Shown here one piece after another: positions 4,678-19,363 of a stretch of 64,000 bases of DNA. A model generated the notes under the pieces. That model worked only from the letters and a program-made list of their open reading frames with translations. It ran no database searches and was not told the DNA's origin. Each line of letters opens with the position of its first letter. Position 1 is the first letter of the stretch. Both the position numbers and the translations under genes were made by a program. The DNA comes from Nitrospira sp. (GTDB lineage Bacteria > Nitrospirota > Thermodesulfovibrionia > Thermodesulfovibrionales > SM23-35), in contig VGWX01000001.1 of assembly GCA_016873615.1 (NCBI GenBank), forward strand, positions 53,734 to 117,733. The letters are read 5' to 3'.

Positions 4678-7185
4678 ATGCAAGAAGAAAGTAATATAAC
4701 CCCAACGCCATCAAATGAACAGCGCGAAGAGGTCCGCACCGGGCTGAGCGCGAAAGCGATCAAACAATCTGTGCTTGATAACCTTTACTTCCATCTCGCA
4801 AAGGTCCCGCACACCGCAACCCGGAACGACTGGTATCTGGCGCTTGCGTATACTGTCCGGGACAGGATGATACAACGCTGGATTAGAACACTCAATAACT
4901 TTACAGAAGATATTACAGTAGTCGCATACCTGTCTTCCGAGTTTCTAATGGGGCCACAACTCGGGAACAACCTTTTGAACCTCGGCATCTATGACAAGGT
5001 CTCTGAGGCTCTCAAAGAGTTAGGCCTTAATTTAGAGGAACTGAGCGAACAGGAGAAAGATCCCGGGCTTGGCAACAGCAGCCTTGGAAGGCTGTCAGCC
5101 TGCTATATGGATTCACTCGCAACGCTCGAGATCCCTGCAATAGGATATGGGGTGCGCTATGAATTCGGCGTATTTGATCAGGATATCCGGGACGGCTGGC
5201 AGGTTGAAATGACCGACAAGTGGCTTCGGCCCGGCAACCCCTGGGAGATCCCGCGGCCTGATATCGCCTACAATGTGCTTCTCGGCGGACACACCGAGTC
5301 TTATTATGACAAGCAGGACACTTTCCGGGTGCGATGGATTCCCAAATTCTCTCTCAAAGGGATTGCATATGATACCCCTGTATCCGGATACAGAGTCGGC
5401 ACAACAAACCTGTTGCGGCTCTGGAAATCCGAGGCAGTCGAATCCTTTGATTTTGAGGCCTTCAACACCGGCGATTACTTCGGCGCAGTCAACGAGAAAA
5501 TTGCCTCGGAATCGATCGGCAAGATACTCTATCCTGATGACGAACCATATGCCGGCAAACAGTTGCGGCTTGCACAGCAGTATTTTTTTATCTCCTGCGC
5601 TCTCCAGGATATGATACGCCTCCACCTCCTGCGCTGGAAAAGCATCCATGCCTTCTCTGACTCCTTTGCCGTACAGCTTAATGATACCAATCTCGCAATC
5701 GCGGTTGCTGAACTGATGAGACTCCTGGTGGATGAACATCTCGTAAGCTGGGACAAAGCATGGTACATCACACAGAACACCTTCTCATACACAAACCATA
5801 CCATTTTACCTGAAGCCCTCCAGAAGTGGCCATTGCCGCTCTTCTCAGGCATCCTACCAAGACACCTTGAAATTATTTATGAGATAAACCGGCGCTTTCT
5901 TGAAGAGATATGGTTAAAGTATCCTGATAATAATGATAAACTATCCCGTATTTCCATCATCGATGAGAGTGATCAGAAATATGTCCGTATGTCGCAGCTT
6001 GCAGCTTTAGGAAGCCATGCAGTCAACGGCGTTTCAAAAATCCATTCTGAGTTCCTGAAGAATAACATTCTCTCCGATCTTCACGAACTGTATCCTGAAA
6101 GGTTTCTTAATGTAACAAACGGAGTTGCACCGAGGCGCTGGATTGTACTCAGTAATCCGCGACTCACTGAACTTATTACAAATACGATCGGAGAGCGCTG
6201 GATCACGAAACTGGATGATATAAAACAGCTTGAAGCCTTTGCCAATGATCCGAACCTTATAAAAAAATGGCGCCAGGCAAAGCATGAAAATAAACGTGAT
6301 CTTGCCGGGATCATTCATGACCGGACTGGAATTTCGACTAATCCTGATACGCTCTTTGACATTCATATGAAGCGCCTCCATGAATACAACCGCCATCTTC
6401 TCAACGTTCTTCACATTATCACATTATATAACAGGATCAGGAAAAATCCCCGGACAGATATCACTTCCCGGACATTCATCTTCGGGGGCAAATCTTCTCC
6501 CGGCTATTTCATGGCAAACCTTATTATAAAACTGATCAATTCTGTTGCCGAAGTTGTAAACAGTGATCCTGACGTGGCAGGACGTCTGAAAGTTGTATTT
6601 TTCCCAAACTTTACCGTAAAGAATGGACAAAGGGTTTATCCGGCTGCAGACCTTTCCGAACAGATATCTACGGCAGGAAAAGAGGCATCGGGCACAGGGA
6701 ACATGAAATTCTCTATGAACGGCGCATTGACAATAGGCACTTTAGACGGATCGAACTCAGAAATACGTGAAGAGGTAGGCTCCGAAAACTTCTTCCACTG
6801 TTGTTTGAATGCTGAAGAGATATATCAAATTAAATCTCATGGCTATAATCCAATGACTTACTATAATGCTGATCCTGACCTGAAAGAAGTGATTGACCTT
6901 ATCAGTTCCGGATTCTTTTACACAAAAGACGCAAACCTGTTCAAGCCATTGGTTGACTCGCTGCTTCGCCGCGATGAACATATGGCGCTTGCCGATTATC
7001 AGTCCTATATTCAATGCCAGGATAGAGTGAGTATGATATTCAAAGATCAGAAAAAGTGGACAAAGATGTCGATCCTGACTGTTGCGCGGATGGGAAAGTT
7101 CTCATCAGACCGTTCCATACGTGAATACAACGAAAAAATATGGCATGCCGCACCGCTGAAAATAGACATTGAGAGTACAGAATAA
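4678..7185 (+). CDS. glgP: glycogen/maltodextrin phosphorylase
   Basis: About 835 aa. The PLP-lysine motif EASGTGNMKF is present. Start moved to ATG 4678, which has GGAG (4667-4670) 7 nt upstream; the ORF-track GTG 4651 has no SD. Confidence 0.9.
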   Translation: MQEESNITPTPSNEQREEVRTGLSAKAIKQSVLDNLYFHLAKVPHTATRNDWYLALAYTVRDRMIQRWIRTLNNFTEDITVVAYLSSEFLMGPQLGNNLLNLGIYDKVSEALKELGLNLEELSEQEKDPGLGNSSLGRLSACYMDSLATLEIPAIGYGVRYEFGVFDQDIRDGWQVEMTDKWLRPGNPWEIPRPDIAYNVLLGGHTESYYDKQDTFRVRWIPKFSLKGIAYDTPVSGYRVGTTNLLRLWKSEAVESFDFEAFNTGDYFGAVNEKIASESIGKILYPDDEPYAGKQLRLAQQYFFISCALQDMIRLHLLRWKSIHAFSDSFAVQLNDTNLAIAVAELMRLLVDEHLVSWDKAWYITQNTFSYTNHTILPEALQKWPLPLFSGILPRHLEIIYEINRRFLEEIWLKYPDNNDKLSRISIIDESDQKYVRMSQLAALGSHAVNGVSKIHSEFLKNNILSDLHELYPERFLNVTNGVAPRRWIVLSNPRLTELITNTIGERWITKLDDIKQLEAFANDPNLIKKWRQAKHENKRDLAGIIHDRTGISTNPDTLFDIHMKRLHEYNRHLLNVLHIITLYNRIRKNPRTDITSRTFIFGGKSSPGYFMANLIIKLINSVAEVVNSDPDVAGRLKVVFFPNFTVKNGQRVYPAADLSEQISTAGKEASGTGNMKFSMNGALTIGTLDGSNSEIREEVGSENFFHCCLNAEEIYQIKSHGYNPMTYYNADPDLKEVIDLISSGFFYTKDANLFKPLVDSLLRRDEHMALADYQSYIQCQDRVSMIFKDQKKWTKMSILTVARMGKFSSDRSIREYNEKIWHAAPLKIDIESTE

Positions 7186-7306
7186 GATTTGATTTTTCAG
7201 CCGGATCAGATTATGAAGGCAACAATAGCAATCTAACCTTTCCCCTTGAAACATTGGCAGACTATTATTTAGACTATATTAAGTATTTATTCAAGGAGGT
7301 GATTCA

Positions 7307-7591
7307 ATGAAACTCAGTGAAAATGTAAAGCCAATAAGTTATATCAAATCCCATGCTTCTGAAATCATCCGTGATTTAAGTGAGGAGAATAGCACTGTTG
7401 TCATTACCCTTAATGGAGAAGCAAAGGCAATTCTACAGGATATCCGTGAATACGAAAAAGTACAGGAGAGTCTTGCCATGCTAAAGATACTTGCACATAG
7501 CAGGAAAAGTCTTGAGGCAGGCAATACGAGACCTGCAAAGGATGTATTCCGCGATATCAGGGCAAAAGCAAAGGGAACTCAGCAAAGGTGA
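7307..7591 (+). CDS. type II antitoxin, Phd/YefM family
   Basis: 94 aa. N-terminus (ISYIKSHASEIIRDLSEENSTVVITLNGEAKAILQDIREYE) is typical of Phd/YefM. It overlaps the downstream toxin gene by 4 nt, and GGAGG lies upstream of the ATG. Confidence 0.8.
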   Translation: MKLSENVKPISYIKSHASEIIRDLSEENSTVVITLNGEAKAILQDIREYEKVQESLAMLKILAHSRKSLEAGNTRPAKDVFRDIRAKAKGTQQR

Positions 7592-7911
7592 AATACACTA
7601 TCGAGATCATCATTGATGCTGAGAACGACTTGCGGGAAATATATCGCTATGCAGCCAGGAATGATTCTATTGAAAAAGCGGACCGCCTGATCGACAACAT
7701 TGAGAAAACCATTTTTACGCTCGAAACACTTCCGTTCCGGGGCAATTATCCACCTGAGCTGGAGAGAATCGGCGTCCTGGAATACCGGGAGGTATTTTTC
7801 AAGCCTTATCGGATCATTTATCAGGTCATGAAATCTATTGTTTACATCCACTGTATCCTTGACGGCAGAAAAGATTTGCCCGATCTCCTACAGAGCAGAC
7901 TTTTAAGATAA
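7588..7911 (+). CDS. parE: type II toxin, ParE/RelE family
   Basis: 107 aa with GTG start overlapping the antitoxin stop. The pattern A..DL.EIY.Y...YRIIY...IVYIHCILDGRKD is typical of ParE/RelE. Confidence 0.8.
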   Translation: MKYTIEIIIDAENDLREIYRYAARNDSIEKADRLIDNIEKTIFTLETLPFRGNYPPELERIGVLEYREVFFKPYRIIYQVMKSIVYIHCILDGRKDLPDLLQSRLLR

Positions 7912-8047
7912 TTAACCGGTTAATCTTGTACCAGTACACATAGAAAAGATCATCTTGAGAGATTTCTGCTCCCGGTCTGTTACTTCCTGAAGTCCTACTC
8001 TTTTAATCTGGATATAGTCGTGCAGAGTATAACCAGTAAGAGCTAAT

Positions 8048-8068
8048 TTACTAATGCGGTCATTAGTA
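8048..8068. repeat. 21-nt palindromic element ttactaatGcggtcattagta (copy 1 of 2)
   Basis: Stem tactaatg / cattagta with a 4-nt loop. A second copy with one mismatch is at 24845-24865. Confidence 0.7.
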
Positions 8069-8090
8069 TGGCGACATAGTTTTGTCTGTT

Positions 8091-8296
8091 TGTCATTCTC
8101 CGGCTTGGAAGCTGTGTCGCAATTGCCTGAAAATATACATTTGTCATTCTGAACGAAGTGAAGAATCTCATGAAATTAATGTGTTATAAAACAGAGATTC
8201 TTCGGCTTGGGCCTCAGAATGACATTGTGACACAGTCTCTCGACCGGTGAATCCAGTTCCTTTCTCTGGATTGCCCGATCAAGTCAAGCAATGACG
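8091..8296. repeat. cluster of nested REP/MITE-like inverted repeats (GTCATT... family)
   Basis: Inner arms 8142-8169 (tgtcattctgaacgaagtgaagaatctc) and 8194-8224 (gagattcttcggcttgggcctcagaatgaca). Outer arms 8091-8125 and 8223-8254. A third unit at 8266-8296 is related to 23377-23430 and 9086-9120. Confidence 0.6.
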
Positions 8297-8386
8297 TACT
8301 TATAGCCGTCTTAGTAAATGGTCTATTGGGCTAATCAAAATTCATAAATACTATAAAACATGCCTTGACATTTTAAATTTATATGC

Positions 8387-8415
8387 TTGACTTTTTTTAT
8401 ACACTATAATACACT
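8387..8415 (+). promoter_or_regulatory. candidate sigma70-type promoter of the lexA-like gene with overlapping repeat/palindrome (possible operator)
   Basis: TTGACT (8387-8392), 17 nt spacer, TACACT (8410-8415). The ATG at 8426 follows with no SD, so the transcript looks leaderless or short-leadered. ATACAC is directly repeated (8399-8404, 8409-8414), and ATACA-N3-TGTAT is an imperfect palindrome at 8409-8421. Confidence 0.3.
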
Positions 8416-8425
8416 TTGTATAATT

Positions 8426-9052
8426 ATGAAGGCACAACTAAGTAAAAAACAAGCAGATGCAGTCCGTCATATCCGAAATTGGATTATGCATAAAGGCAAA
8501 ACCCCATCTGTCCGTGAGCTGATGACAGCGCTTGGATATAAATCTCCCAGATCGGCTGCTTTAATTATCGAGGAATTAATCCAGAAAGGTATTTTGAAAA
8601 AACGTTCAAATGGAAATTTGCAGTTAATAAAAGATATTGACGCAGATTCAGTTCATGCCCGCACAGTCGATATTCCCATAGTTGGTATGGTAACCTGTGG
8701 AGTGCCTATCTTGGCTCAGGAAAACATAGAGGGATTTATTCCTGTATCTGATTCCCTTGCAAAGCCCGGTTTTAAATACTTCTTGCTTAGGGCTAAAGGC
8801 GATTCTATGAACAAAGCTGGAATCAATGATGGAGATTTAATACTTGTTCGCCAGCAGTCAGTGGCACAAAATGGCGATATAGTTGTAGCACTGATTGATG
8901 ATGAAGCAACTGTGAAAGAGTTTCAACATAGCAAAAATTGTGTTGTTTTAATGCCTATGTCGAATAATAAAAGTCATAAGCCGATTATCCTGACTGAAAA
9001 TTTTCAGGTTCAAGGGGTAGCTGTAACAACAATTCCAAAATTGGAGGTTTGA
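8426..9052 (+). CDS. lexA: LexA-type repressor (winged-helix N-domain plus S24 autopeptidase)
   Basis: 208 aa from ATG 8426. The N-domain resembles the LexA DNA-binding domain (KTPSVRELMTALGYKSPRSAALIIEELIQKGILKK). The S24 catalytic Ser is in KGDSM and the Lys in ATVKEF. The linker VTCGVPILAQENIEG aligns to the LexA VAAGEP cleavage region. Confidence 0.8.
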   Translation: MKAQLSKKQADAVRHIRNWIMHKGKTPSVRELMTALGYKSPRSAALIIEELIQKGILKKRSNGNLQLIKDIDADSVHARTVDIPIVGMVTCGVPILAQENIEGFIPVSDSLAKPGFKYFLLRAKGDSMNKAGINDGDLILVRQQSVAQNGDIVVALIDDEATVKEFQHSKNCVVLMPMSNNKSHKPIILTENFQVQGVAVTTIPKLEV

Positions 9053-9085
9053 ATATGACAAAGAATGCACATTCACCCTCTTTTC

Positions 9086-9120
9086 TGTCATTCCCGCAAT
9101 CATTAAGCGGGAATCCAGAA
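9086..9120. repeat. REP-like hairpin (tgtcattcccgc...gcgggaatcc), possible terminator of the lexA-like gene
   Basis: 8-bp stem attcccgc (9090-9097) / gcgggaat (9107-9114). It has the same GTCATT... leader as the 8091-8296 and 23377-23430 copies. Confidence 0.5.
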
Positions 9121-9239
9121 GGTGTTGTTATAAAAATGAATTTATTGATCAAAAGGCGGATAAGGGATGGTTGAAAGGGGGAGGAAGGGAAAGTAGCTGA
9201 ATGAGCTAAATAATATTGTGATCTTGTGAGAATAACAAA

Positions 9240-10391
9240 GTGATATATTTGACACCAAGGGAAATAGATGAATTAGATGAAGAAAAATTAAGAACTTTTC
9301 TTCAGAAAAAATATAGAGAAAATAGATTTCTCGACTATAAATTAAAATACGAGAAACGCAATGATGAAGAAACAAAAGAGGAATTTCTTGCTGATGTAAC
9401 TGCGTTTGCAAATTATTATGGAGGAAATATAATCGTTGGCGTAAACGAACTTGAAGAAGAAGGAGCAAGTTCTCAACCGGGGGAGTTGGAGGGAATAAAT
9501 GATGGAAAAATTTTGGCTGAAAGGTTTAGTAATTTATGCGAAACTTCTATTGACCCCATAATTCCCGGGTTGATTATTAAGGAAATACCTCTTAAAAATG
9601 TAAGATGGGCAATTGTTGTTTATATTCCCCCCAGTCTCAGAAAGCCTCATATGGTTAATTTTAACCGTAAGAGAGAATTTTATATAAAACGTGATGACAG
9701 GAAGGGCAAGATGACAGCAGATGAAGTAAAAAGAACGGTTTTAGAAGTAATAAATCTTCAAAATGATATGAACTCATACATTAAAATGGTGGAAGAAGAA
9801 ATTATTGAGGACTTCATAGGTTATGACTTTGCCCTTATAATGCATTCTGTTCCGTATTTGCTTGAAGAAGGTCAGATTGACACATCATCTGAAATGATTA
9901 AATCAGCTTTGTATAACAATTCTTTGTTTATTAACTACAGCATAGATATTAGAACATCCTACTCCATAGCCAATATTCATGGTATTGTTGGACAAGATTC
10001 CTATCACGATCCTTTTATTCAAAGTTATATTCACCGAACAGGTTATATTGGGCTGGCAATTAATTTTCAAAAAAGATTTGCCATAACTGGAATAAAAGAT
10101 AAAATAATTTATCCTTCTAAAAACGATTTTTTATCTTTTTTAAGGCTTTCTGAACTTATTATTGAAAGGGCGCAGATAGCGCAGCTTTATCAAGTACGCA
10201 GTAGTTTTATAAATGCAAAGGGAGCGGTTTGCAGATGTGAAAGGATAGGCGGTTTTGAACGCCAATCAAATATTGTTTGGAAGCGTGATCGCATCAACCT
10301 GCCAGGTGTAAGACTTGATTCATTTCAAGATATTGATAAAGTTGCAGAATTATTTTTTAAGAGACTAAAAAATGCTTTTGGAATGGAATAA
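9240..10391 (+). CDS. Schlafen/AlbA_2 (divergent AAA) domain protein with uncharacterised about 200-aa C-terminal domain
   Basis: 383 aa. The N-terminal half matches the AlbA_2 pattern (FLDYKLKY..., ADVTAFANYYGGNIIVGVNE, VVYIPPSLRKPHMV, FYIKRDDRKGKMTADEV). I see no HTH or catalytic motif in the C-terminal half. The GTG start is uncertain and has no clear SD. Confidence 0.6.
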   Translation: MIYLTPREIDELDEEKLRTFLQKKYRENRFLDYKLKYEKRNDEETKEEFLADVTAFANYYGGNIIVGVNELEEEGASSQPGELEGINDGKILAERFSNLCETSIDPIIPGLIIKEIPLKNVRWAIVVYIPPSLRKPHMVNFNRKREFYIKRDDRKGKMTADEVKRTVLEVINLQNDMNSYIKMVEEEIIEDFIGYDFALIMHSVPYLLEEGQIDTSSEMIKSALYNNSLFINYSIDIRTSYSIANIHGIVGQDSYHDPFIQSYIHRTGYIGLAINFQKRFAITGIKDKIIYPSKNDFLSFLRLSELIIERAQIAQLYQVRSSFINAKGAVCRCERIGGFERQSNIVWKRDRINLPGVRLDSFQDIDKVAELFFKRLKNAFGME

Positions 10392-10456
10392 TTTAAATAA
10401 AATTTAAGCCCGCTACAATCAGCAGCGAGATGGAATGATTAACAAGAGGCTATATA

Positions 10457-11731
10457 ATGGCATCTATTAATGGAGATTGGTTTCATTCAAGGAGCAGTTC
10501 GAATCTTGAAGAATTATTGACAGTCAGGACATTGGTTCTTGAAAGTCAAAAATCTGAATATATTGGTTTTGGCTGGTCTGGGGGCAGGCTAAGAAATCAA
10601 AAAATGTATAAATTTGCTGCAGCAGCCGATATTCAGCCATCCACAATGCAAACTAAAATTCGTGCAATGATTCGTTACGGCTTTATTAAAGATGGTACTC
10701 AATGCCCGCTTGTCTGGACAAGAATGGGAAGTCTTTGGAATGACCTTTACACAGTGGGTAATTACGGTGCAGCCCAAAAAGTTTATGAATTAACTCTAAC
10801 AATTTCACTTGCGATTTATGCTTTTAATAATACACAGGCTCAATACAGCATAAATCCGGCAAATGGTGAAATGCCTTTGAGGTTCTTGTTAAATATTCTT
10901 GATACTCAGAATTCTATTTCTCTTCAAGAATTTGAAGCATTAGTTGACGGCAATACTCAAAGGGTAGGAGACAACGCTTCGTACTGGAAAAGAGATCTTA
11001 TAAATTCAGGGCTGTTTAAAGATGTACAAGGCGGATTATTTTATACAGGTAAGTATCCAGATTTTATTCGGGAAATTAAGAGTTTCGAGCCAAGTCCATT
11101 TTTAAACGATGCGGACTGGCAATCAATAAGAGAAAATCCACTAATTGAAATTTCACCATTCAGAAACTCAATTCGTTCAATTTTTGAAGCAATAACACAA
11201 GAACAAAATATAGAGGAACAAATTACCGATGAAATTTTCACAGCGCCATTGGTTAATGCCGTTGCAGAACAGGAAGAAATTCAAATGCCAGAGATTGACA
11301 TTTTAAGCAGTGATTTGAGGTTTTCACAAAGCACGCGAAGGATAAGGAATGCGGCATGGGCTATAAGAATAAAAAAGAAATATAATTACATATGTGCTAT
11401 CCCGAATTGTGATGTTATAGGACAAATCTTTGTTGAAGCTGCGCACATTAAGCCCGATAATGCACCGGATAGCAATATTCCACACAGGGCACATATCTTA
11501 AATGGACTATGTTTATGCAGGCATTGTCATATCGCTTTTGACAAAGGTTATTTCTCACTTACTGATACGCATAAAATCATTACATCAACAAGATTTAATG
11601 ATATACCTAACCAGAATCTCAAAACTGCCATAATTTCAAGTGCAAACATTCAAATCAAGAATAGAATGGATAGCAGGTTGCCATTAGTTGAATTTATTCA
11701 GTATCACAGGAGTAACAGATTTAAAGGTTAA
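10457..11731 (+). CDS. HNH-family nuclease, putative restriction endonuclease (large N-terminal recognition domain plus C-terminal HNH)
   Basis: 424 aa with AAGAGG SD upstream. The C-terminus YNYICAIPNCDV...VEAAHIKP...HRAHILNGLCLCRHCHIAFDKGYFSL is the HNH (HNH_2-type) signature. It sits immediately upstream of two DNA methyltransferases. Confidence 0.7.
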   Translation: MASINGDWFHSRSSSNLEELLTVRTLVLESQKSEYIGFGWSGGRLRNQKMYKFAAAADIQPSTMQTKIRAMIRYGFIKDGTQCPLVWTRMGSLWNDLYTVGNYGAAQKVYELTLTISLAIYAFNNTQAQYSINPANGEMPLRFLLNILDTQNSISLQEFEALVDGNTQRVGDNASYWKRDLINSGLFKDVQGGLFYTGKYPDFIREIKSFEPSPFLNDADWQSIRENPLIEISPFRNSIRSIFEAITQEQNIEEQITDEIFTAPLVNAVAEQEEIQMPEIDILSSDLRFSQSTRRIRNAAWAIRIKKKYNYICAIPNCDVIGQIFVEAAHIKPDNAPDSNIPHRAHILNGLCLCRHCHIAFDKGYFSLTDTHKIITSTRFNDIPNQNLKTAIISSANIQIKNRMDSRLPLVEFIQYHRSNRFKG

Positions 11732-11739
11732 GACATAAA

Positions 11740-13176
11740 ATGGGACATACTGACTTAACATATAAAGTATTATTTGATGAATTTGAAGTAGCCAGCATAG
11801 TTGCTGAACCAACATTAAATTACACCCTTTTTGAGGCTGAATTTAAAAATTCGCAAGCGGAGCAGATAAAAATATTTAATAAACTCGAACAGACTCTCCC
11901 GTTTTATAATGGCGAGTCTTTCAGAAATCAAGTACATTTTCAATTTGCTTACCAAACACCAGTCCAGAGATGGTTTCCTTATCGTGAAGGTTACTCCATA
12001 AAACTTGTAAATGCTTTTATCAAAGAGTTAAAAATTAAAGGAAATACTTTTGACCCATTCTCAGGAAGTGGAACCACCCTTCTGGCTTCACGCATGGCTG
12101 ATTTAAATTCATTTGGAATTGATGTAAATCCTGTTTCTGTCTTAGCTGCTAACGTTGAAAATGAACAATACACGCCAGAGGATATTATTCAAGTTGAAGA
12201 AGAATCAAAAAAGCTGACGAACATTGAAAAATCTAAGGAGATTTTTCAGACCTCTTTTGATCTGGCTAATAAAGTATTTAATCAAGATATTTTACAGGCA
12301 CTTCTTCAATTTAAACAACATATAAAAGCTATTCAGCATGAGAAAACTAAAGAGGTACTCTTTGTTGCATGGCTTTCAATAATTGAAGATGTTTCAAACA
12401 TTAAGAAAGAAGGCAACGGAATCAAATACAAAAATCGCAAGAGAACTCCCAATGGTTATATAAACATTGAAAAAGAAAGATGGGAAAATGAAAAATTTCC
12501 TGATAATAAATTTAGCTTTGTAAAAACAAAACTCTCTAATCGTATTGAAATAATTTTATCTGACTTGAAATTTGCTTATGGTAAATGTGATAAAAAACCA
12601 AACATCTATAAGGGCAATTGCTTAGACTTTGAAAAGTTCTTTTCAGATGAAATTGAATTAACTTTCTTTTCACCTCCTTACTGTAACTGCTTTGACTATT
12701 TTGAGATACATAAGGTTGAGCTTTGGCTTGGAGAGTTTGTTTCTGACAAAGAAGAATTCAGAAAATTGCGAAACACTGGTTTTCGTTCAAATACGAATTC
12801 GTTAAATCATAAGCCAATAATTTATAAGAATGAATACCTTGAAAATCTTATAAGCTTTTTTGAACCTCAAAAACTTTGGAATAATAATATTCCGAATGTT
12901 GCAAGAGGTTATTTTGATGATATCTACACTCTCTTAAATAAACTCTACCAACAAACAACTAAAAATGGTTATATAGGAATTGTTGTTGGCAATTCTGCTT
13001 ATTCAGGTGTAATTATTCCAACAGATAGTTTAATTGCTGAAATTGCAAGAGAAATAGGCTTTAAAGTAAAAAGCATCTTTGTTACAAGGCATTTAACTAC
13101 AAGCTCTCAACAAAAACAGGAATTGGATTATCTGAAAAACTATTTAAGAGAGAGTATTGTATTACTTGAAAGATAA
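11740..13176 (+). CDS. DNA methyltransferase (N6-adenine or N4-cytosine), motif I before motif IV
   Basis: 478 aa. It has FDPFSGSGTT (SAM motif I, about residue 105) and FFSPPYCNCFDY (catalytic motif IV, about residue 310). It lies 8 nt after the HNH gene. Confidence 0.75.
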   Translation: MGHTDLTYKVLFDEFEVASIVAEPTLNYTLFEAEFKNSQAEQIKIFNKLEQTLPFYNGESFRNQVHFQFAYQTPVQRWFPYREGYSIKLVNAFIKELKIKGNTFDPFSGSGTTLLASRMADLNSFGIDVNPVSVLAANVENEQYTPEDIIQVEEESKKLTNIEKSKEIFQTSFDLANKVFNQDILQALLQFKQHIKAIQHEKTKEVLFVAWLSIIEDVSNIKKEGNGIKYKNRKRTPNGYINIEKERWENEKFPDNKFSFVKTKLSNRIEIILSDLKFAYGKCDKKPNIYKGNCLDFEKFFSDEIELTFFSPPYCNCFDYFEIHKVELWLGEFVSDKEEFRKLRNTGFRSNTNSLNHKPIIYKNEYLENLISFFEPQKLWNNNIPNVARGYFDDIYTLLNKLYQQTTKNGYIGIVVGNSAYSGVIIPTDSLIAEIAREIGFKVKSIFVTRHLTTSSQQKQELDYLKNYLRESIVLLER

Positions 13177-13181
13177 TTAGA

Positions 13182-14498
13182 ATGCATGATTACCTTTTTG
13201 TAAAAGAAGTCATACCGGCTGAAATTAAGCAAGATTCAATTTTGAATATACGCACAAATAATGTAACTGCCTATACACACGGTTTTCATAAATATCCGGC
13301 TAAATTCATTCCGCATATCCCAAAATGGGCAATCAATAAATATTTGGCAGGACAAAAAAACAAAACTATATTAGACCCATTCTGTGGTTCAGGCACAACT
13401 TTAGCAGAAGGAATTTTAGCAGGACATAATGTAATTGGTATTGACATAGATCCTTTATCATGTCTGATCGCGAAAGTCAAAACCACGAATGTTAATACTG
13501 CAGAGCTAAACAAAGTTTCAAACTGGCTTGCAAAAGGAGTTAAAAAGAAAAAAAGAGGAGAGTTTAAGCCGGAATGCGAAACGATTGGACATTGGTTTCC
13601 TAAAGAAACAATAAACAAGCTTTCAATAATACGGACTCTCATTAATCAGATTCCTGAAAGATTTGGCAATAATAAAAGCATTAAAGATATTCAGCATCTT
13701 TTAATTATATGTTTTTCATCTATAATACGGCGTGTTTCTTATGCAGATAATGAGTCGCAAAAAACTTATGTTTCACACACTCACATTAAAACCCCTGAAG
13801 AACCATTGAGTCTTTTTCTTTTACAACTTGATTTGTTCAAGGAGAGAATTGCTAAGTTCCCTGAAAACATTCCTAAACTTAGAAATCGGATTATTTGTTC
13901 ATCAAGTACAGAATCGTTAAAAGTAAAACTGAAAGGACAACATATAAATTTAGCAATCACTTCGCCACCCTATATCAAAGCTATAGATTATATTTACAAT
14001 CAGATGGTTGAATTATTTTGGATTGGAGATTTATTTGGCATACAAACACAGTCAAAACAGAATGAAAAGAAAAAAGAATACATTGGGACAAAACATTTTC
14101 ATAAAAAAGAGTTTGTAAAATATACACCGTTTGAAACAACTATAGGAATTAAAAAACTGGACAATAAGATTCAAAAGGTATTTAAAACAGACAAGATAAA
14201 CGGGCATAAACATGCCTACATTACATTCAAATATTTTGTGGGTATGGAAAACCACTTTGCAGAAATATCAAAATGCTTAGACAAAGGCAGGCATTATATA
14301 ATGGTAGTCGGCGACAGTTCAGTAAGCAACATTTTCTTTTATACTGCTAACTTTTTGACGGAAATTGCGGAGCGAAATGGTTTTAGAATAACCAACAAGT
14401 GGGGCTACAAAATCAAGAATCGTTATATGAGATTTGACAGAAATGGACGAGGTGGAATAATTGATATTGATTGGGTTTTAGATTTAGTTAGAGTATAA
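13182..14498 (+). CDS. DNA methyltransferase (N6-adenine or N4-cytosine), paralog of the preceding gene
   Basis: 438 aa with LDPFCGSGTT (about residue 65) and ITSPPYIKAIDY (about residue 262). The C-terminal block HYIMVVGDSS...FLTEIAERNGFRI parallels YIGIVVGNSA...LIAEIAREIGFKV of the upstream enzyme. The gap between them is 5 nt. Confidence 0.75.
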   Translation: MHDYLFVKEVIPAEIKQDSILNIRTNNVTAYTHGFHKYPAKFIPHIPKWAINKYLAGQKNKTILDPFCGSGTTLAEGILAGHNVIGIDIDPLSCLIAKVKTTNVNTAELNKVSNWLAKGVKKKKRGEFKPECETIGHWFPKETINKLSIIRTLINQIPERFGNNKSIKDIQHLLIICFSSIIRRVSYADNESQKTYVSHTHIKTPEEPLSLFLLQLDLFKERIAKFPENIPKLRNRIICSSSTESLKVKLKGQHINLAITSPPYIKAIDYIYNQMVELFWIGDLFGIQTQSKQNEKKKEYIGTKHFHKKEFVKYTPFETTIGIKKLDNKIQKVFKTDKINGHKHAYITFKYFVGMENHFAEISKCLDKGRHYIMVVGDSSVSNIFFYTANFLTEIAERNGFRITNKWGYKIKNRYMRFDRNGRGGIIDIDWVLDLVRV

Positions 14499-14583
14499 AT
14501 TTTGAAAAGAATAGCAAGTAGGGTCTTGAAACATCAGTTTTTTATTCTGCCTGTTGAACACATCACCTTAAAAGGAGTGTGCT

Positions 14584-15306
14584 ATGAATAACAAAGGATT
14601 GTCGGAAGTCTTGCAGTCCTCTTCACTGCTTGGTCAGGTCGTAGGCGCAGAGAAACTCTTTCTCTCGGGCCGCCGGAAACGGGGAGAAGATCTCGAGAGC
14701 GCGGTGAGATTCTTTCTCGAGTTCCTGCACGGCTTTGAGAGTTTTGATTTTGATGGTCCATGTGTAACGGTTTTTGGATCAGCGCGCTTTCAGGAAAGAC
14801 ATCGCTACTACGAACTGGCGCGCGAACTTGGACGTGCGCTCGCCAATGCAGGCTATGCTGTCATGACAGGAGGCGGACCAGGCATCATGGAAGCTGCAAA
14901 CCGCGGCGCCAAAGAAGGCGGGGGCTTAAGCCTCGGCTGCAATATCAAGCTACCATTTGAACAGAAACCAAATCCATACCTCGACAAGTTCATCGAATTT
15001 GAGCACTTTTTCGTGCGCAAGGTGATGCTTGTAAAATACTCCACTGCATTCGTCGTGATGCCGGGCGGGTTTGGCACGCTTGATGAGGCTTTCGAAGTGA
15101 TTACGCTCGCTCAGACCGGAAAACTTGAGCGATTTCCAGTCGTAGGCATGGTCAGGGAATTTTGGGACCATCTCCGCCGGTTCATGAACGACACCATGCT
15201 GGCTGAGGGCACCATAAGCAGCGAGGACATGGATTTGATCCACGGAGCAAACACGGTTGAGGATGCCATTCGCATTATCCGGGGGCTCTCGCGCGGAAAC
15301 TTTTAA
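14584..15306 (+). CDS. LOG-family (TIGR00730) Rossmann-fold nucleotide-binding protein
   Basis: 240 aa with GGGPGIMEA and PGGFGTLDE motifs. AAAGGAG SD is present. It is markedly more GC-rich than the cassette to its left. Confidence 0.85.
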   Translation: MNNKGLSEVLQSSSLLGQVVGAEKLFLSGRRKRGEDLESAVRFFLEFLHGFESFDFDGPCVTVFGSARFQERHRYYELARELGRALANAGYAVMTGGGPGIMEAANRGAKEGGGLSLGCNIKLPFEQKPNPYLDKFIEFEHFFVRKVMLVKYSTAFVVMPGGFGTLDEAFEVITLAQTGKLERFPVVGMVREFWDHLRRFMNDTMLAEGTISSEDMDLIHGANTVEDAIRIIRGLSRGNF

Positions 15307-15324
15307 TCTAAAAAAAATGCAATT

Positions 15325-15513
15325 AACCACAGAGAACACGGAGAAATATTTTGATAATAAAAGAGAACTTATCAGTTTTTACAATTTCCTCTGTACACTA
15401 TTTTATATAGGATTGAATCTTAATTGTTTTTAAAATATACATGAGGACACAGAGAATTGCTTGAAACTAAAAGTCTTTTAAAAGTTTAAAATACCTCTGT
15501 GAACTCTGTGGTT
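15325..15513. repeat. two tandem MITE/REP-like inverted-repeat units (CACAGAG / CTCTGTG family)
   Basis: aaccacagagaacacggag (15325-15343) pairs with cctctgtacac (about 15388-15398). gaggacacagagaa (15444-15457) pairs with cctctgtgaactctgtggtt (15494-15513). Confidence 0.55.
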
Positions 15514-15565
15514 TTATCTAAAGGCATTTTTGAGTTCATAAAAAGATATTGCAGGGCAATTACTT

Positions 15566-15994
15566 ATGAATAAGGATAGTAAAATTTTCCCGCGCAAGAC
15601 ACTTGATTCCCTCCATCTATCCAAAGAAGAGAGGGAGAAAATTATGGAAATCGCACTTGAGCGGATGGTCATGATCAATGGCAAGGCATATGGATTGGAG
15701 GATGATGCAGAGCCGGATGTAGTAGTCGATTGTGCATCGATAACTGCAACATGCAAGGCTTTCTGCTGCGCTTATGCCTTTGCCCTGACTCAAGAGGAAG
15801 CTAAAAAAGAGTTTTACAAGTACAATGCTGAAAAGCCCTTTTACATTGCCCGGGACACTGATGGATACTGCCCGTATCTCGACCGCACAACCTTTAAATG
15901 CGGCATCCATGATAAACGTCCATTGCGATGCAGGAAATATGCCTGCCCTCAGGCTAAGAAGCTATATAGTTTATGTAAGCAAGCAAAATGGTAG
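15566..15994 (+). CDS. YkgJ-family cysteine-cluster (putative Fe-S/Zn) protein
   Basis: 142 aa with Cys pattern CKAFCC...GYCPYLD...KCGIHDKRPLRCRKYAC, typical of the CxxCxxCC/UPF0153 family. Confidence 0.7.
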   Translation: MNKDSKIFPRKTLDSLHLSKEEREKIMEIALERMVMINGKAYGLEDDAEPDVVVDCASITATCKAFCCAYAFALTQEEAKKEFYKYNAEKPFYIARDTDGYCPYLDRTTFKCGIHDKRPLRCRKYACPQAKKLYSLCKQAKW

Positions 15995-16046
15995 TCGCAG
16001 CAACGTGTCTATACCCTGAGACGGCCTATATAGAAATTCTTGTTTT

Positions 16047-16232
16047 TTAGACCAGCTTCTTTACAGCCTTTGCCTGCTTGGCAACCGTTTTCTTCACAAC
16101 CTTTACCTGCTTGGCAACTGTTTTCTTTACATCCTTTACTTTTTTGGCAACATCTTTCTTTACGCTTTTTACCTGCTTGGCAACCTTTTTCTCAACTTTC
16201 TTCACCTTCTTGGCAATTGTCTTAATTTTCAT
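16047..16232 (-). CDS. small lysine-rich protein made of five 11-residue repeats (histone H1-like / amphipathic-helix type)
   Basis: 61 aa. The repeats are TIAKKVKKVEK, KVAKQVKSVKK, DVAKKVKDVKK, TVAKQVKVVKK and TVAKQAKAVKK (33-nt DNA period). AGAGG SD lies before the ATG and a candidate promoter lies upstream. Confidence 0.6.
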   Translation of the reverse strand: MKIKTIAKKVKKVEKKVAKQVKSVKKDVAKKVKDVKKTVAKQVKVVKKTVAKQAKAVKKLV

Positions 16233-16298
16233 CTTTACCTCTTTCTATAAAGTATTTACATCTTCATGATGTAACTGAAATCTTTTGCACGTTGAATC

Positions 16299-16327
16299 AT
16301 CCTACCAGACATCCCCCCTATTGTCAA
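16299..16327 (-). promoter_or_regulatory. candidate promoter of the lysine-rich gene
   Basis: On the minus strand: TTGACA (16327-16322), 17 nt spacer, TAGGAT (16304-16299). Direct repeats tcatcatcatgactgc (16328-16343 and 16346-16364) lie just upstream of the -35. Confidence 0.35.
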
Positions 16328-16385
16328 TCATCATCATGACTGCTGTCATCATCATCATGACTGCATAATCATACTATTGTTTATC

Positions 16386-16637
16386 TTATCGGGAATCATC
16401 TGCCCCTTTGCTGCCTTTTGCCTCATTCAGTTTCTCCAATACCTGCGTAAACGCTGCAAACAATTCATCAGACAATCTCTGCACCTTCTCCATTCTCTCT
16501 ATAGCCTTGAGAATAAGGCTGTGCAAATCATCCTCTGAAACAGATGCATCCAAAAGCTCCAGCGTTCCCTTAACAGTTGTTATGTGCTCACCTATTTTGT
16601 CTGATATTTCTTTTAATCTATTATTAATCTCTGACAT
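16386..16637 (-). CDS. hypothetical helical protein (83 aa), weakly HisKA/DHp-like
   Basis: IGEHITTVKGTLELL resembles a histidine-kinase H-box helix. There is no other domain. Confidence 0.4.
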   Translation of the reverse strand: MSEINNRLKEISDKIGEHITTVKGTLELLDASVSEDDLHSLILKAIERMEKVQRLSDELFAAFTQVLEKLNEAKGSKGADDSR

Positions 16638-16754
16638 TTACTTCTCCCTCTCAATTTGATTTAAACAAAACATAAATAGAAAATAAAAACCTTAAAATAA
16701 TTATATACGAAATCCCTTCAACTGCGTACCGGCAGCAGTTCGTGGTATTATATT

Positions 16755-17009
16755 ATGTTGCAAAAAAATACTTATCCTATGAAAAAGTCACATTATCTCA
16801 TATGGCTTGGAATCTCTGCTGCTGCAGGGACTTTCCTTGGCATGCTTGCTGAACGGAAACATCCTGCAAAAGGCAGTCTCTTCGGCGCAGCTGCAGGCGT
16901 TGTTGCAGGTTCTGTTGTCGCAGGTGTTTATCAGTACGTTACCACAGGAGAAAAGGTTCCGTATTATTCCAAGTCGTCTGCCTTTTACGATGAACTCAAT
17001 ACGCTCTGA
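16755..17009 (+). CDS. small membrane protein with glycine-zipper segment
   Basis: 84 aa (or 76 aa from MKKSHY at 16779). It has hydrophobic Gly/Ala-rich segments (GISAAAGTFLG, GAAAGVVAGSVVAG). Its stop is 3 nt before the radical SAM gene. Confidence 0.45.
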   Translation: MLQKNTYPMKKSHYLIWLGISAAAGTFLGMLAERKHPAKGSLFGAAAGVVAGSVVAGVYQYVTTGEKVPYYSKSSAFYDELNTL

Positions 17010-17012
17010 ACT

Positions 17013-18608
17013 TTGATAATCCTCATTTACCCTCCGGTTGCAAAGCCATGCGAACCGCCTGCAGGCATTGCGAGGCTTTCGGCCATACTTCGGATAAGCG
17101 GAGTTGATCACCAACTCCTTGATGCGAATATAGAGGGTCTCCTTTATCTGCTCAGGGGGCCTGTCACCCCTGAAAAAGCGCGTGATGCGTGGACGAGGAG
17201 GGCATTCCGCAATCGTGACCGCAACCTTTCTTCCATGAGAGACCCCTTTTTATACCGGCATATCGACCGTTACAAGAGGGCAGTCAGGGATACAGGCAGG
17301 GCCCTTGCTAAAATTTCCCGGTCTGACACCGCAGTGGGGCTGGTGAATTACGAACATGACGGGCTTTCTCCCTTAAGGAGCAGCGACCTTCTGGCTGCTG
17401 CAGAACGACCTGAACTGAACCCCTTTTATACGTATTTCCGGTCGAGGATTGAAGGACTTTTCCGCGAGAAAAAGCCATCGGTGGCAGGCATCTCCCTCAA
17501 CTATCTGAGCCAGGCATTGTCTGCCTTTTCGATGATCGGTTTCATACGGCATGAATTTCCGGGGATAAAAGTAATTTTGGGAGGAGGGCTTATTACATCA
17601 TGGTTAAAAAGTCCCTTCTGGAAAAATCCCTTCTCCGGACTTGCAGATGAGCTTGTAGCAGGGCCTGGCGAGTATCATCTCCTGTCGCTCCTTGGGATTG
17701 ATACTGCTGAAAAAGAAATGCCGATGCCGGATTATTATGATCTGCCGTGTGACAGTTACTTTTCACCCGGTTTTATCCTGCCCTATAGCGCTTCTGCAGG
17801 ATGTTACTGGAACAGGTGCGCTTTCTGTCCTGAGAATGCAGAAGGCAATCCTTATGTTCCTATCCCGGCGCAGAAGGTTATTTCAAACCTAAAGACCCTT
17901 ACGGAAAAGACCAATCCCGTGCTTATCCACCTTCTCGACAATGCTGTAAGTCCGGCTCTTCTCAATGCGCTTGCCGGCGAAAACTTAAGTGTTCCGTGGT
18001 ACGGATTCGCGCGCATCGGCCCCCATCTGACTGATCCTGATTTCTGCATGTCTCTCAAACAGGCCGGATGTGTAATGCTGAAACTTGGCATTGAATCAGG
18101 GGATCAGGAAGTGCTCGATGCACTCCGGAAAGGGATCACTGTTGAAACAGCTTCTGCTGTCCTGAAGAACCTGAAAAAAGCAGGAATAGCTGCCTATGTC
18201 TACCTCATCTTCGGGACACCGGTGGAGACTGAGAGAGCTGCTAAGAAGACCCTTGAATTCATTGTTAAGAACAGCAACAGCATAGACTTCCTGAATCTCG
18301 CTATATTTAATATGCCCGTCTGTGGGGTAAACAATCCGGGACTCGAGACGAGAGGATTCTATGAAGGAGACCTTTCCCTTTACACTAACTTTACCCACCC
18401 ATATGGATGGGACAGAAAGCATGTACGGTTGTTCCTCGAAAATGAATTCAAACGACACCCTGCAGTTTCGGCAATCCTCAAAAACGAACCTCCGGTATTT
18501 ACCTCAAACCATGCACCGTTCTTTGTGATGGGACGTTCGGGAGATAGAAAAAAGCAAAAATCGTATTCTTATAACGCCAACGCCTCTTCACATTTAAAAA
18601 AATGTTGA
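17013..18608 (+). CDS. B12-binding-domain radical SAM protein
   Basis: 531 aa. The N-terminal LIYPPVAKPCEPPAGIARLSA is a cobalamin-binding-like domain, followed by the cluster motif AGCYWNRCAFCPE. It has a TTG start. Confidence 0.75.
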   Translation: MIILIYPPVAKPCEPPAGIARLSAILRISGVDHQLLDANIEGLLYLLRGPVTPEKARDAWTRRAFRNRDRNLSSMRDPFLYRHIDRYKRAVRDTGRALAKISRSDTAVGLVNYEHDGLSPLRSSDLLAAAERPELNPFYTYFRSRIEGLFREKKPSVAGISLNYLSQALSAFSMIGFIRHEFPGIKVILGGGLITSWLKSPFWKNPFSGLADELVAGPGEYHLLSLLGIDTAEKEMPMPDYYDLPCDSYFSPGFILPYSASAGCYWNRCAFCPENAEGNPYVPIPAQKVISNLKTLTEKTNPVLIHLLDNAVSPALLNALAGENLSVPWYGFARIGPHLTDPDFCMSLKQAGCVMLKLGIESGDQEVLDALRKGITVETASAVLKNLKKAGIAAYVYLIFGTPVETERAAKKTLEFIVKNSNSIDFLNLAIFNMPVCGVNNPGLETRGFYEGDLSLYTNFTHPYGWDRKHVRLFLENEFKRHPAVSAILKNEPPVFTSNHAPFFVMGRSGDRKKQKSYSYNANASSHLKKC

Positions 18609-18650
18609 CGAAACAATTTTGAAAAGCTAAAAAATTAGAGGTATAATATT

Positions 18651-18953
18651 GTGAAAATTATGCAAAGAAGAGACGATAACCAGATCAAACAGGATTTCAG
18701 ATTGCGCCAAAACCTTCAGTATCTTGCCATATCTTTAACGCTGTTGTTTCTTTTATTTCTTGTCTTGCTTTATAAACGTCCTGATCTCTTCGGAGAGTTT
18801 TCAAAGAGTAGTATCTTTTCAGCGCAGGTTTTACTCATTGCAGCCTTTATCGTGTTCAGCGTCTTCAACTGGAGATGCCCTTCATGCAATAAATATATCG
18901 GCAATGATATAAACAGACGCATATGCAAAAACTGCGGGACAAGATTGAGATAA
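18651..18953 (+). CDS. small membrane protein with C-terminal zinc ribbon
   Basis: 100 aa with two predicted TM helices, then CPSCNKY...CKNCGTRL. Confidence 0.45.
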   Translation: MKIMQRRDDNQIKQDFRLRQNLQYLAISLTLLFLLFLVLLYKRPDLFGEFSKSSIFSAQVLLIAAFIVFSVFNWRCPSCNKYIGNDINRRICKNCGTRLR

Positions 18954-19363
18954 AGGAACGATTATCCGGCAAGCAGACAACAAATAAAATTCAGAAAACT
19001 TCCTCCATTATCATTTTTGGTTCTTTCGTATGAGGTTCCAAAATCTTTTCGATTGCTGAAAAACATAGTGTATCTGCTGTTTTGTGACTGTCAATTGACA
19101 GCAAGGAATCAATCAGGGGCATATGAAAGAATATGATGCATGATCTTACTTCGGCTTATTGATAAATAAATTCAAAGCGTACCGTAATTGCCGCAATATA
19201 TCATTATTAATCATTATTAATCATTCTTGACTCCTGATGATTGCCTATATAACATTATAGTTCAGTCGATGCCTGAAGTCAGGCCAAATATGGCATAGTA
19301 TGGCATAGTGACAGATTGACTTTGTTTTTGGGTTTAATTGCGTCCATCAGTTAAAATATCTGC

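Follow-up and report, generated by a model that had tools for sequence, protein, structure and literature searches.

A probable mobile Type II restriction-modification cassette with an HNH nuclease, a predicted N.BspD6I-like recognition fold and two paralogous alpha-class methyltransferases

Three adjacent genes in the 64,000-nucleotide stretch of DNA analysed here (the window), encoding an HNH nuclease (R) and two methyltransferases (M1 and M2), raise the question of whether they form a single unit and, if so, what kind of DNA site that unit would read, cleave and protect. The features on which the argument depends are as follows.

10431..14518, plus strand: conserved, apparently mobile cassette, outermost limits of DNA homology (blastn against related loci)
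10457..11731, plus strand: R, putative restriction endonuclease, 424 aa (ORF)
10457..11206, plus strand: predicted N-terminal DNA-recognition domain of R, aa 1-250, tandem winged-helix-like subdomains (AF2 model and Foldseek)
11207..11356, plus strand: acidic linker of R, aa ~251-300 (low pLDDT, variable in the alignment)
11357..11731, plus strand: C-terminal HNH nuclease domain of R, aa ~301-424 (Pfam HNH_2, profile comparison with the PDB)
11740..13176, plus strand: M1, alpha-class amino-methyltransferase, 478 aa (ORF, motifs and profile matches)
13182..14498, plus strand: M2, alpha-class amino-methyltransferase and paralog of M1, 438 aa (ORF, motifs and profile matches)

The three genes are intact and co-directional, with R first, followed by M1 and M2 across gaps of 8 nt (R-M1) and 5 nt (M1-M2), in a cassette of 4.06 kb. 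A blastn comparison of window positions 5001-20000 with 25 loci showed that in every full-length locus homology starts at 10431-10458 and ends at 14476-14518, with 66-92% identity; the homology ends at the outer limits of the three ORFs, and only in close relatives are the flanks related. The base composition of the cassette is foreign, with a GC content of 0.332 against 0.433 in the remaining window, and cassette GC is lower than that of the flanks in all loci compared. No direct or inverted repeats were found flanking the cassette in the window itself; long direct repeats flank it in two loci. A promoter and terminator scan of positions 7900-15400 gave counts no higher than those in shuffled sequence and nothing usable. 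Genes for lexA-like S24 repressors repeatedly adjoin the cassette.

R, M1 and M2 turn up together in about 25 independent loci with unrelated flanks, an arrangement far beyond chance. An earlier reading of the sequence alone had taken the HNH nuclease and the two paralogous amino-methyltransferases for a restriction-modification (R-M) unit, and this is borne out. The order R-M1-M2 is colinear in four metagenome or genome contexts and in most of 21 loci from GTDB genomes, while a Woesearchaeota MAG (locus L023) carries a rearranged version in convergent order, with R, M1 and M2 at 35, 44 and 45% identity. The identities of the three proteins drop in step across loci, and the trio is kept together except in a few decayed copies, in which R is frameshifted (L019), R and M2 are interrupted by MITE-like insertions (L020) or R is truncated (L021, L022 and L024), a pattern of decay typical of R-M systems. 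Sequence comparison thus supports the view that R, M1 and M2 constitute a conserved functional module. The cassette is present in more than 10 bacterial phyla and on contigs binned as archaeal. We found 242 homologs of R, of which the 120 listed are 389-437 aa long (nearly all 423-425) with identities of 67-94%; this enzyme family, not previously studied, is widespread among uncultured microbes. The search of viral contigs gave no relative, and in the plasmid collection R had none along its full length, the matches being confined to the HNH domain with 27-46% query coverage. On plasmids of Pseudanabaena and Cryobacterium, an older pair of M1-like and M2-like genes lies with other nucleases, and hence the pair behaves as a stable two-methylase module; the 389-aa protein beside the Cryobacterium pair has no similarity to R.

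M1 and M2 had been read as clear paralogs, and indeed share 24% identity over 371 aa (BLASTP, E 3e-13). Motif I is DPFSGSGTT in M1 (aa 105, nt 12052-12078) and DPFCGSGTT in M2 (aa 65, nt 13374-13400), motif IV is SPPY in both (aa 311, nt 12670-12681 and aa 261, nt 13962-13973, respectively), and the other motifs quoted in that reading, VVGNS/VVGDS and EIAREIGF/EIAERNGF, are likewise present. Pfam N6_N4_Mtase (PF01555) recognizes M1 and M2 with scores of 32.6 and 44.2 (cut-off 26.7), the match covering only the end of the profile (160-221 of 221) and lying at their N-termini; neither protein has the full-profile beta order, with motif IV before motif I. Both have full-length matches to PADLOC MTase_II profiles (M1 to PDLC03224, E 1e-80; M2 to PDLC03362, E 1.6e-70) and display the order motif I, a target-recognition (TRD) insert longer than 150 aa and motif IV. 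This is the alpha class (Topology D), in which motif I (FxGxG) is followed by the TRD insert and motif IV ((S/D)PPY) (bioRxiv 10.1101/2023.12.13.571470, PMC6712171). Motif I had been placed about 200 aa before SPPY, which agrees with the 206 aa seen in M1 and the 196 aa in M2 and with the permuted PF01555 match; the order is no oddity but that of a classic characterised class, exemplified by M.DraR1 and Dam (PMC6712171, bioRxiv 10.1101/2023.12.13.571470). Since an SPPY motif typifies m4C enzymes (PMC6712171), N4-methylcytosine is the probable product of M1 and M2, with N6-methyladenine as a possible one. Conservation per column within either ortholog group is 0.6-0.9, whereas agreement between the M1-group and M2-group consensus is 0.42-0.44 around motif I and 0.14-0.17 in the central region, a divergence that fits two different target-recognition domains.

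In R, Pfam HNH_2 (PF13391) matches aa 318-368 (E 2.3e-9; 37.4 bits, cut-off 21) and leaves about 300 aa ahead of it, close to the 290 aa of the sequence-only reading. We propose from the sequence that C313, C318, C354 and C357 are zinc ligands, and H330, N349 and H358 catalytic residues; the HNH residues and the four cysteines are invariant or nearly so across the family. R thus exceeds the Pfam threshold and keeps both the His/Asn/His set and the Cys4 zinc site of the McrA/TagI-type HNH_2 nucleases. A profile comparison of R with the PDB recovered 6yex (3e-10) and TagI (6e-9), then EcoKMcrA and ScoMcrA, and the module can be aligned to SBD-HNH enzymes over their C-terminal half, which carries the nuclease. 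The NCBIfam model PT-DNA_restrict (NF045808) matches R in its C-terminal half only (profile 127-284, E 7.5e-16), with a score of 58 below the cut-off of 180, and beyond HNH_2 R matches no restriction-enzyme family in Pfam, NCBIfam or PADLOC. The HNH part of the full-length AF2 model has pLDDT <50 and is unusable.

In the N-terminal domain of R, DWFHSRSS lies at aa 7-14 and TKIRAMIRYGFI at aa 66-77; both had been quoted in the earlier reading, and both rank among the best-conserved positions of the family. A search of 1.84 billion proteins with this domain of ~250 aa retrieved solely its own narrow family, in just 34 representative clusters. An AF2 model of aa 1-262 (pLDDT 86.3, pTM 0.86) was compared with the PDB using Foldseek: the top 8 matches were all N.BspD6I (TMq 0.50-0.54, prob 1.00), followed by the BpuJI recognition domain (TMq 0.43) and FokI (TMq 0.44), and TM exceeded 0.3 solely with Type IIS recognition domains. 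The likeness to N.BspD6I is moderate (E ~3e-3, rmsd 7.5-9 A, 16% identity). The model accordingly predicts a sequence reader with the FokI/N.BspD6I/BpuJI type of fold; no SRA, EVE/PUA or SBD reader is present. Searches of PDB sequences with phmmer and hmmsearch revealed no homology between R and N.BspD6I at E-values up to 10. A faint resemblance of the R N-terminus to AlwI, PleI and MlyI, suspected earlier, hence survives at the level of the fold (N.BspD6I, a member of the MlyI/PleI/N.BstNBI family) and not as a sequence relationship. R shares with N.BspD6I, N.BstNBI, MlyI, PleI and AlwI a layout in which recognition and cleavage reside in separate domains, with the recognition domain first, but these enzymes cleave with PD-(D/E)XK (PMC2441816) and R has HNH_2. 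We therefore reject membership of R in the AlwI/PleI/MlyI/N.BspD6I family. The acidic linker between the two domains has low pLDDT in the full-length model and is the most variable part of the family alignment.

We consider that the cassette is probably a Type II R-M system complete in itself and mobile by horizontal transfer, most likely of the IIS/IIA kind acting on an asymmetric site. Its separate nuclease and methyltransferase genes are adjacent and inherited together, and the catalytic motifs of both activities are intact. In the proposed mechanism the tandem winged-helix domain of R would bind a specific DNA sequence, the ~50-aa acidic linker would set the HNH site a short fixed distance from it, and this single, zinc-stabilised C-terminal site would cut unmethylated DNA there. 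M1 and M2, as SAM-dependent enzymes each with its own central target-recognition region, would divide the two strands of a shared asymmetric site between them, and this methylation would protect the host. An asymmetric site with cleavage at a set position beside or outside it has indirect support from the predicted reader fold, from the differing central regions of M1 and M2, and from EcoWI, a relative that cuts a short, fixed distance from the site it binds (PMC7461809).

There are precedents for several parts of this scheme. Two methyltransferases usually accompany an enzyme that acts on an asymmetric site (PMC4081073). MnlI, HphI, Eco31I, MboII and Hin4II are known Type IIS enzymes of the HNH kind (PMC2441816), and in Hin4II the M1 and M2 genes are separate (PMC2816704). 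Hin4II/HpyAV, MnlI, HphI and Eco31I resemble the cassette in combining N-terminal recognition with a C-terminal HNH/beta-beta-alpha-Me nuclease, and their asymmetric sites and two protecting methyltransferase activities follow the same logic that we propose here (PMC2816704, PMC2441816). Type IIS enzymes that pair an HNH nuclease with two methyltransferases were already on record (Hin4II; MnlI, HphI, Eco31I; PMC2816704, PMC2441816). The comparisons with Pfam, NCBIfam and PADLOC profiles detected no sequence similarity to this group, and the cassette differs from it in three respects: 1) the HNH of R is of the McrA/TagI-type HNH_2 kind rather than colicin-E9-like; 2) in place of a C5 and N6A pair there are two alpha-class SPPY methylases; and 3) R comes first in the gene order. 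That R precedes the methylase genes, with neither a controller protein nor a conserved promoter found for the cassette, counts against our reading. We regard as rather unlikely the more ambitious proposal that R founds a new Type IIS family with a new specificity, in which a FokI/N.BspD6I-type reader is joined to a Type IV-type nuclease module and an SOS-type repressor, rather than a controller protein, may drive expression of the cassette or be coupled to it.

It is unlikely that the cassette is a Type IIP-like R-M system whose site is palindromic or otherwise symmetric; the second methyltransferase would then be redundant or have another role, for instance with single-stranded or hemimethylated substrates as in the DpnII system. 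In Acinetobacter sp. NEB 394, pBspH1 encodes a related methyltransferase, presumably M.BspHI (TCATGA), which is presumed to act alone on a palindrome. The N4-cytosine enzyme M.DraR1 of Deinococcus radiodurans acts alone on the palindrome CCGCGG; as in M1 and M2, its FxGxG motif (position 63) is N-terminal and its SPPY (position 256) C-terminal, with the TRD in the centre (PMC6712171). Its homology to M1 is distant (21.7% identity over 79% of M1, E 3e-11). Two methylases are hence no proof of asymmetry, and many HNH Type II enzymes, such as KpnI, SphI, Hpy99I and PacI, are IIP homodimers (PMC4081073). However, M.DraR1 is a lone enzyme with a proposed GIY-YIG nuclease partner, whereas the cassette has two paralogs with different central regions, in a pair that is ancient and always retained together. 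Further, the predicted reader fold of R is the monomeric multi-winged-helix of FokI, N.BspD6I and BpuJI, enzymes that without exception recognise asymmetric sites.

The single HNH active site per R chain might only nick, which counts against double-strand cleavage and would make R a site-specific nicking endonuclease in a nicking-modification system like N.BstNBI/N.BspD6I without the small subunit. The enzyme that the R N-domain resembles most in structure is a natural nickase, truncated SBD-HNH relatives nick DNA (PMC7461809), and a gene for a small second subunit is absent from the conserved cassette. Yet MnlI, Eco31I and HpyAV, HNH Type IIS enzymes with a single site, make double-strand breaks (PMC2441816, PMC2816704), and the relative EcoWI, an SBD-HNH enzyme, cuts both strands in Type IIS-like fashion at N7/N6 from its bound site (PMC7461809). 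As methylases for both strands also fit double-strand cleavage better, we consider nicking quite improbable.

Finally, that R is a modification-dependent Type IV enzyme merely neighbouring two non-cognate methyltransferases in a defence island is suggested by its partial PT-DNA_restrict match and by the nearest sequence relatives of its HNH module, TagI, VcaM4I (PDB 6yex), EcoKMcrA and ScoMcrA, which, like SBD-HNH enzymes (EcoWI), share with R the HNH_2 domain and the region C-terminal to it; but these have SRA, EVE or SBD readers of modified DNA and no cognate methyltransferase, whereas R has a predicted Type IIS-fold reader and is linked to two co-inherited methyltransferases in all those unrelated settings, even in the rearranged 35%-identity version, with DNA homology halting exactly at the three-gene limits, and we reject this as the main reading and hold it to be very improbable.

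If R of this presumed Type IIS cassette is active, it would bring from uncultured organisms a new specificity, Type IIS or nicking, of a kind useful for DNA assembly and labelling, and a clear case of modular restriction-enzyme evolution, in which a Type IIS-style reader is combined with an HNH module otherwise found in modification-dependent enzymes. The sharp limits, the high protein identity across many phyla among the R homologs listed and the direct repeats in two loci make the cassette well suited to the study of R-M mobility. The cassette overturns no current understanding, and the general kind of defence unit is well known. A related, uncharacterised trio on plasmid ABRG53a of Pseudanabaena sp. 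ABRG5-3 has an orthologous methylase pair (36.7% and 32.0% identity), after which comes a 436-aa protein whose layout, a large N-domain and a C-terminal HNH, is R-like. It differs in its order, M1-M2-R, and in its HNH family, which is PF01844 and not HNH_2; most of the N-domain of the 436-aa protein has no detectable similarity to R, and its first ~100 aa show a possible homology to those of R (hhalign prob 63%, E 7e-5).

The cassette consists of three closely spaced ORFs, all on the + strand, which match their description in the sequence-only reading. The intergenic gaps are 8 nt (R/M1) and 5 nt (M1/M2), and the cassette, with R first, is apparently promoterless and controller-less:

10457-11731, + strand: R, putative HNH restriction endonuclease, ORF of 424 aa
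11740-13176, + strand: M1, amino-methyltransferase, ORF of 478 aa
13182-14498, + strand: M2, amino-methyltransferase paralogous to M1, ORF of 438 aa

We propose that a tandem winged-helix domain of R would read an asymmetric site, near which its single HNH site would cut the DNA, and that M1 and M2 would each methylate one strand of that site. Systems of this kind, Type IIS-like HNH restriction-modification (R-M) systems served by two methyltransferases, are well established; well-known examples of HNH Type IIS enzymes accompanied by two methylase activities are Hin4II/HpyAV, MnlI, HphI, Eco31I and MboII (PMC2816704, PMC2441816, PMC4081073). The enzyme R is very probably uncharacterised, because among the matches listed its homologs, where named at all, bear the names 'HNH endonuclease', 'predicted restriction endonuclease' or 'hypothetical protein' and no specific enzyme name, the curated restriction-enzyme families of Pfam, NCBIfam and PADLOC offer no match beyond HNH_2, and all carrier genomes are MAGs.

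The paralogy of M1 and M2 claimed earlier is borne out by BLASTP (24% identity over 371 aa, E 3e-13). In M1, motif I (DPF[SC]GSGTT in the two proteins) is at aa 105 and SPPY at aa 311, 206 residues later; in M2 they are at aa 65 and aa 261, 196 residues apart, both spacings being close to the 200 aa noted before. The beta-ordered Pfam N6_N4_Mtase profile agrees with this: it matches by its last 60 positions alone, at the N-terminus of each protein, as expected from a permuted motif order. The order had been regarded as a departure from the usual one; however, motif I followed by a long insert and motif IV is the classic alpha class, 'Topology D' (bioRxiv 10.1101/2023.12.13.571470). It is comparable to that of M.DraR1 of D. 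radiodurans, a characterised alpha-class N4-cytosine methyltransferase with the site CCGCGG, whose FxGxG and SPPY motifs are at residues 63 and 256 (PMC6712171). Given this order and the full-length matches to the PADLOC MTase_II ('Type II methyltransferase') models (M1 E 1e-80, M2 E 1.6e-70), the architecture of both enzymes is ordinary. M.DraR1 is also a distant homolog of M1 (E 3e-11), and a plasmid-borne methyltransferase, that of pBspH1 in Acinetobacter sp. NEB 394 (presumably the BspHI strain), is likewise distantly related. The SPPY motif favours m4C over m6A as the probable product, without amounting to proof. When 18 orthologs of each paralog were compared, both groups proved well conserved end to end, and agreement between their consensuses was 0.42-0.44 around motif I versus 0.14-0.17 in the central region (M1 aa 145-285, M2 aa 105-237). 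Two different target-recognition domains, which these regions may represent, would be expected to diverge in this way. A symmetric-site R-M system carrying a spare methylase appears unlikely.

By sequence, relatives of R with a known structure or name are found for its C-terminal third only. There the HNH module that had been placed behind a large N-terminal part is recovered by Pfam HNH_2 (aa 318-368, E 2.3e-9, exceeding the cut-off), and the proposed catalytic H330, N349 and H358, together with C313, C318, C354 and C357, are invariant or nearly so across the family. Searches of PDB sequences with the family profile retrieved 6yex (E 3e-10), titled merely 'HNH endonuclease' in the PDB file and which we take to be VcaM4I, as well as TagI (E 6e-9) and, more weakly, EcoKMcrA and ScoMcrA. 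The nuclease half of the NCBIfam model for phosphorothioate-dependent SBD-HNH enzymes also matches R (E 7.5e-16), well under the cut-off of that model.

The N-terminal strings that had been singled out are present in R and belong to the best-conserved positions of the family, which include W8, F9, H10, S11 and R12, and T66, K67, I72, R73, G75 and F76. In a search of 1.84 billion representative proteins, aa 1-290 matched just 34 clusters, whose full-length members nearly all share the architecture of R (~417-443 aa); in sequence terms, the reader domain thus forms a narrow orphan family. AlphaFold modelled aa 1-262 with confidence (pLDDT 86.3, pTM 0.86), and in a Foldseek search of the PDB the top 8 matches to this model are all chains of N.BspD6I (probability 1.00, E 3e-3 to 1e-2, query-normalised TM 0.50-0.54), followed by the BpuJI recognition domain (TM 0.43) and FokI (TM 0.44); every other match is a generic winged-helix regulator below TM 0.25. 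The ranking was unchanged with the full-length model. N.BspD6I is a Type IIS nickase of the MlyI/PleI/N.BstNBI family (PMC2441816 Table 1; PMC4081073), and hence the weak impression that the N-terminus resembles AlwI/PleI/MlyI enzymes was right as to the kind of domain, as judged by fold, but not as to sequence homology. We rejected R as a member of the MlyI/PleI/N.BstNBI family, since it lacks sequence homology to that family and has a different cleavage domain. That the cassette is a nicking system, as the activity of N.BspD6I might bring to mind, we consider quite improbable. For R as an endonuclease of an asymmetric site, cleavage at a distance would find indirect support in the modular build with a ~50-aa linker, the Type IIS structural neighbours and the EcoWI-like relatives; SBD-HNH enzymes such as EcoWI cut N7/N6 from the bound site (PMC7461809).

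Homologs of R number 242, and the best 120 of these are metagenomic, 67-94% identical and nearly all ~424 aa long. A scan of GTDB, with one genome per species, recovered 21 loci, all in MAGs, including those of Elusimicrobia, Nitrospirae, Gammaproteobacteria, Chloroflexota, Brocadia, Scalindua, Chitinophagaceae, Ignavibacteriaceae, Latescibacterota, an unclassified 'archaeon' and Woesearchaeota. R, M1 and M2 are colinear in nearly all of them; in the woesearchaeotal locus the three are kept at 35, 44 and 45% identity, with both methyltransferase genes convergent to R. Both this strict three-gene linkage and the fold of the reader domain argue against R being an unrelated Type IV enzyme adjacent to M1 and M2 by accident, which is very improbable. 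The three genes of the proposed R-M system also form a sharply bounded unit: the window and the other loci become homologous at the DNA level no more than 26 nt ahead of the R start codon and cease to be so within 20 nt of the M2 stop, and the flanking genes are otherwise unrelated between loci. The GC content of the cassette is 0.332 versus 0.433 for its flanks in the window, and it is below that of the flanks in 17/17 loci tested. In the Ignavibacteriaceae MAG an extra M1-like fragment (11723-12586 of that locus, 27% identical) lies ~1.7 kb downstream of the cassette.

Decayed copies, typical of R-M systems, are also seen. In L019 R is frameshifted, and in L020 two different small MITE-like insertions with terminal inverted repeats (2286-2448 and 4745-4993) lie in R and M2, so that the cassette is inactivated there. 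The complete Candidatus Spongiihabitans chromosome NZ_OZ252047 carries a cassette in which R appears frameshifted. L021, L022 and L024 have a truncated R and no M1. In L021 and L022 (a Scalindua and a Bacteroidetes MAG) R ends at ~aa 165-180, M1 is absent and M2 lacks its N-terminus; these similar breakpoints suggest a shared replacement event or mobile insert. Neither of the two ORFs that occupy the gap in L021 (6528-8013; 153 and 343 aa) has a significant Pfam match, and the longer one gives weak HTH-like matches only. Direct repeats bracket the cassette in L017 (1166-1380 / 5648-5862, 215 nt, 95% identical) and L021 (4853-5152 / 9389-9688, 300 nt, 87% identical), an arrangement that resembles what has been called 'insertion with long target duplication' in R-M units (PMC2853133). 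No long direct repeats flank the cassette in the window. The viral contigs searched yielded no relative and the plasmids searched no full-length one. An integrase gene and a Replic_Relax gene (a faint Pfam match in the case of Replic_Relax) are also present on the 'archaeon' contig, which therefore looks like a mobile element.

The methyltransferase pair is found beside different nucleases and is therefore older than the cassette, combining with different partners. On a Pseudanabaena plasmid, M1-like (36.7%) and M2-like (32.0%) genes are followed by a 436-aa protein with a C-terminal HNH of the PF01844 type and, over its first 100 residues, possible homology to the start of R (hhalign probability 63%, E 7e-5). 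On the Cryobacterium plasmid pA28BH1 (4941-11175 of that locus) the same pair precedes an unrelated 389-aa protein, a McrB-like AAA_5 ATPase and possibly a McrC-like protein (weak, sub-cut-off Pfam McrBC match). Here a two-methylase system may be joined to a McrBC-type restriction module, an arrangement we take to be reminiscent of LlaJI.

In several unrelated lineages the neighbourhood of the cassette includes a LexA-type S24 repressor gene, always on the same strand. It is upstream of R in the window (8387-9052; TIGR00498 score 164.9, above cut-off), in L007 (771-1418, 87% identical), in L009 (1543-2190, 38% identical, its stop codon just 37 nt from the R start) and, by 6 kb, in L001 (1647-2246, 31% identical); on the 'archaeon' contig a Peptidase_S24 gene (14782-15624) is downstream. 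Such genes are commoner near the cassette than chance would give for one gene among thousands. Possible reasons are a hotspot for insertion, mobile islands in common, or SOS-coupled expression of the cassette, which lacks a conserved promoter of its own. Between LexA and R the window encodes a Schlafen AlbA_2-domain protein of 383 aa (9240-10391, domain E 2.1e-14), outside the conserved cassette and within a low-GC stretch (~8000-14500, GC 0.31-0.38). At this position the close relative L007 has three other genes, encoding a 212-aa apparent membrane protein and proteins of 384 and 365 aa with HxHxDH-type motifs, metallo-beta-lactamase-like by eye; the slot thus appears to hold variable cargo. 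Upstream of the island are Phd/YefM antitoxin and ParE toxin genes (7307-7911) with a 4-nt overlap. At 16024-16244 there are 5 or 6 tandem copies of a 33-nt unit, which code for lysine-rich KKVAKQVK... repeats in a 61-aa ORF (16047-16232, - strand).
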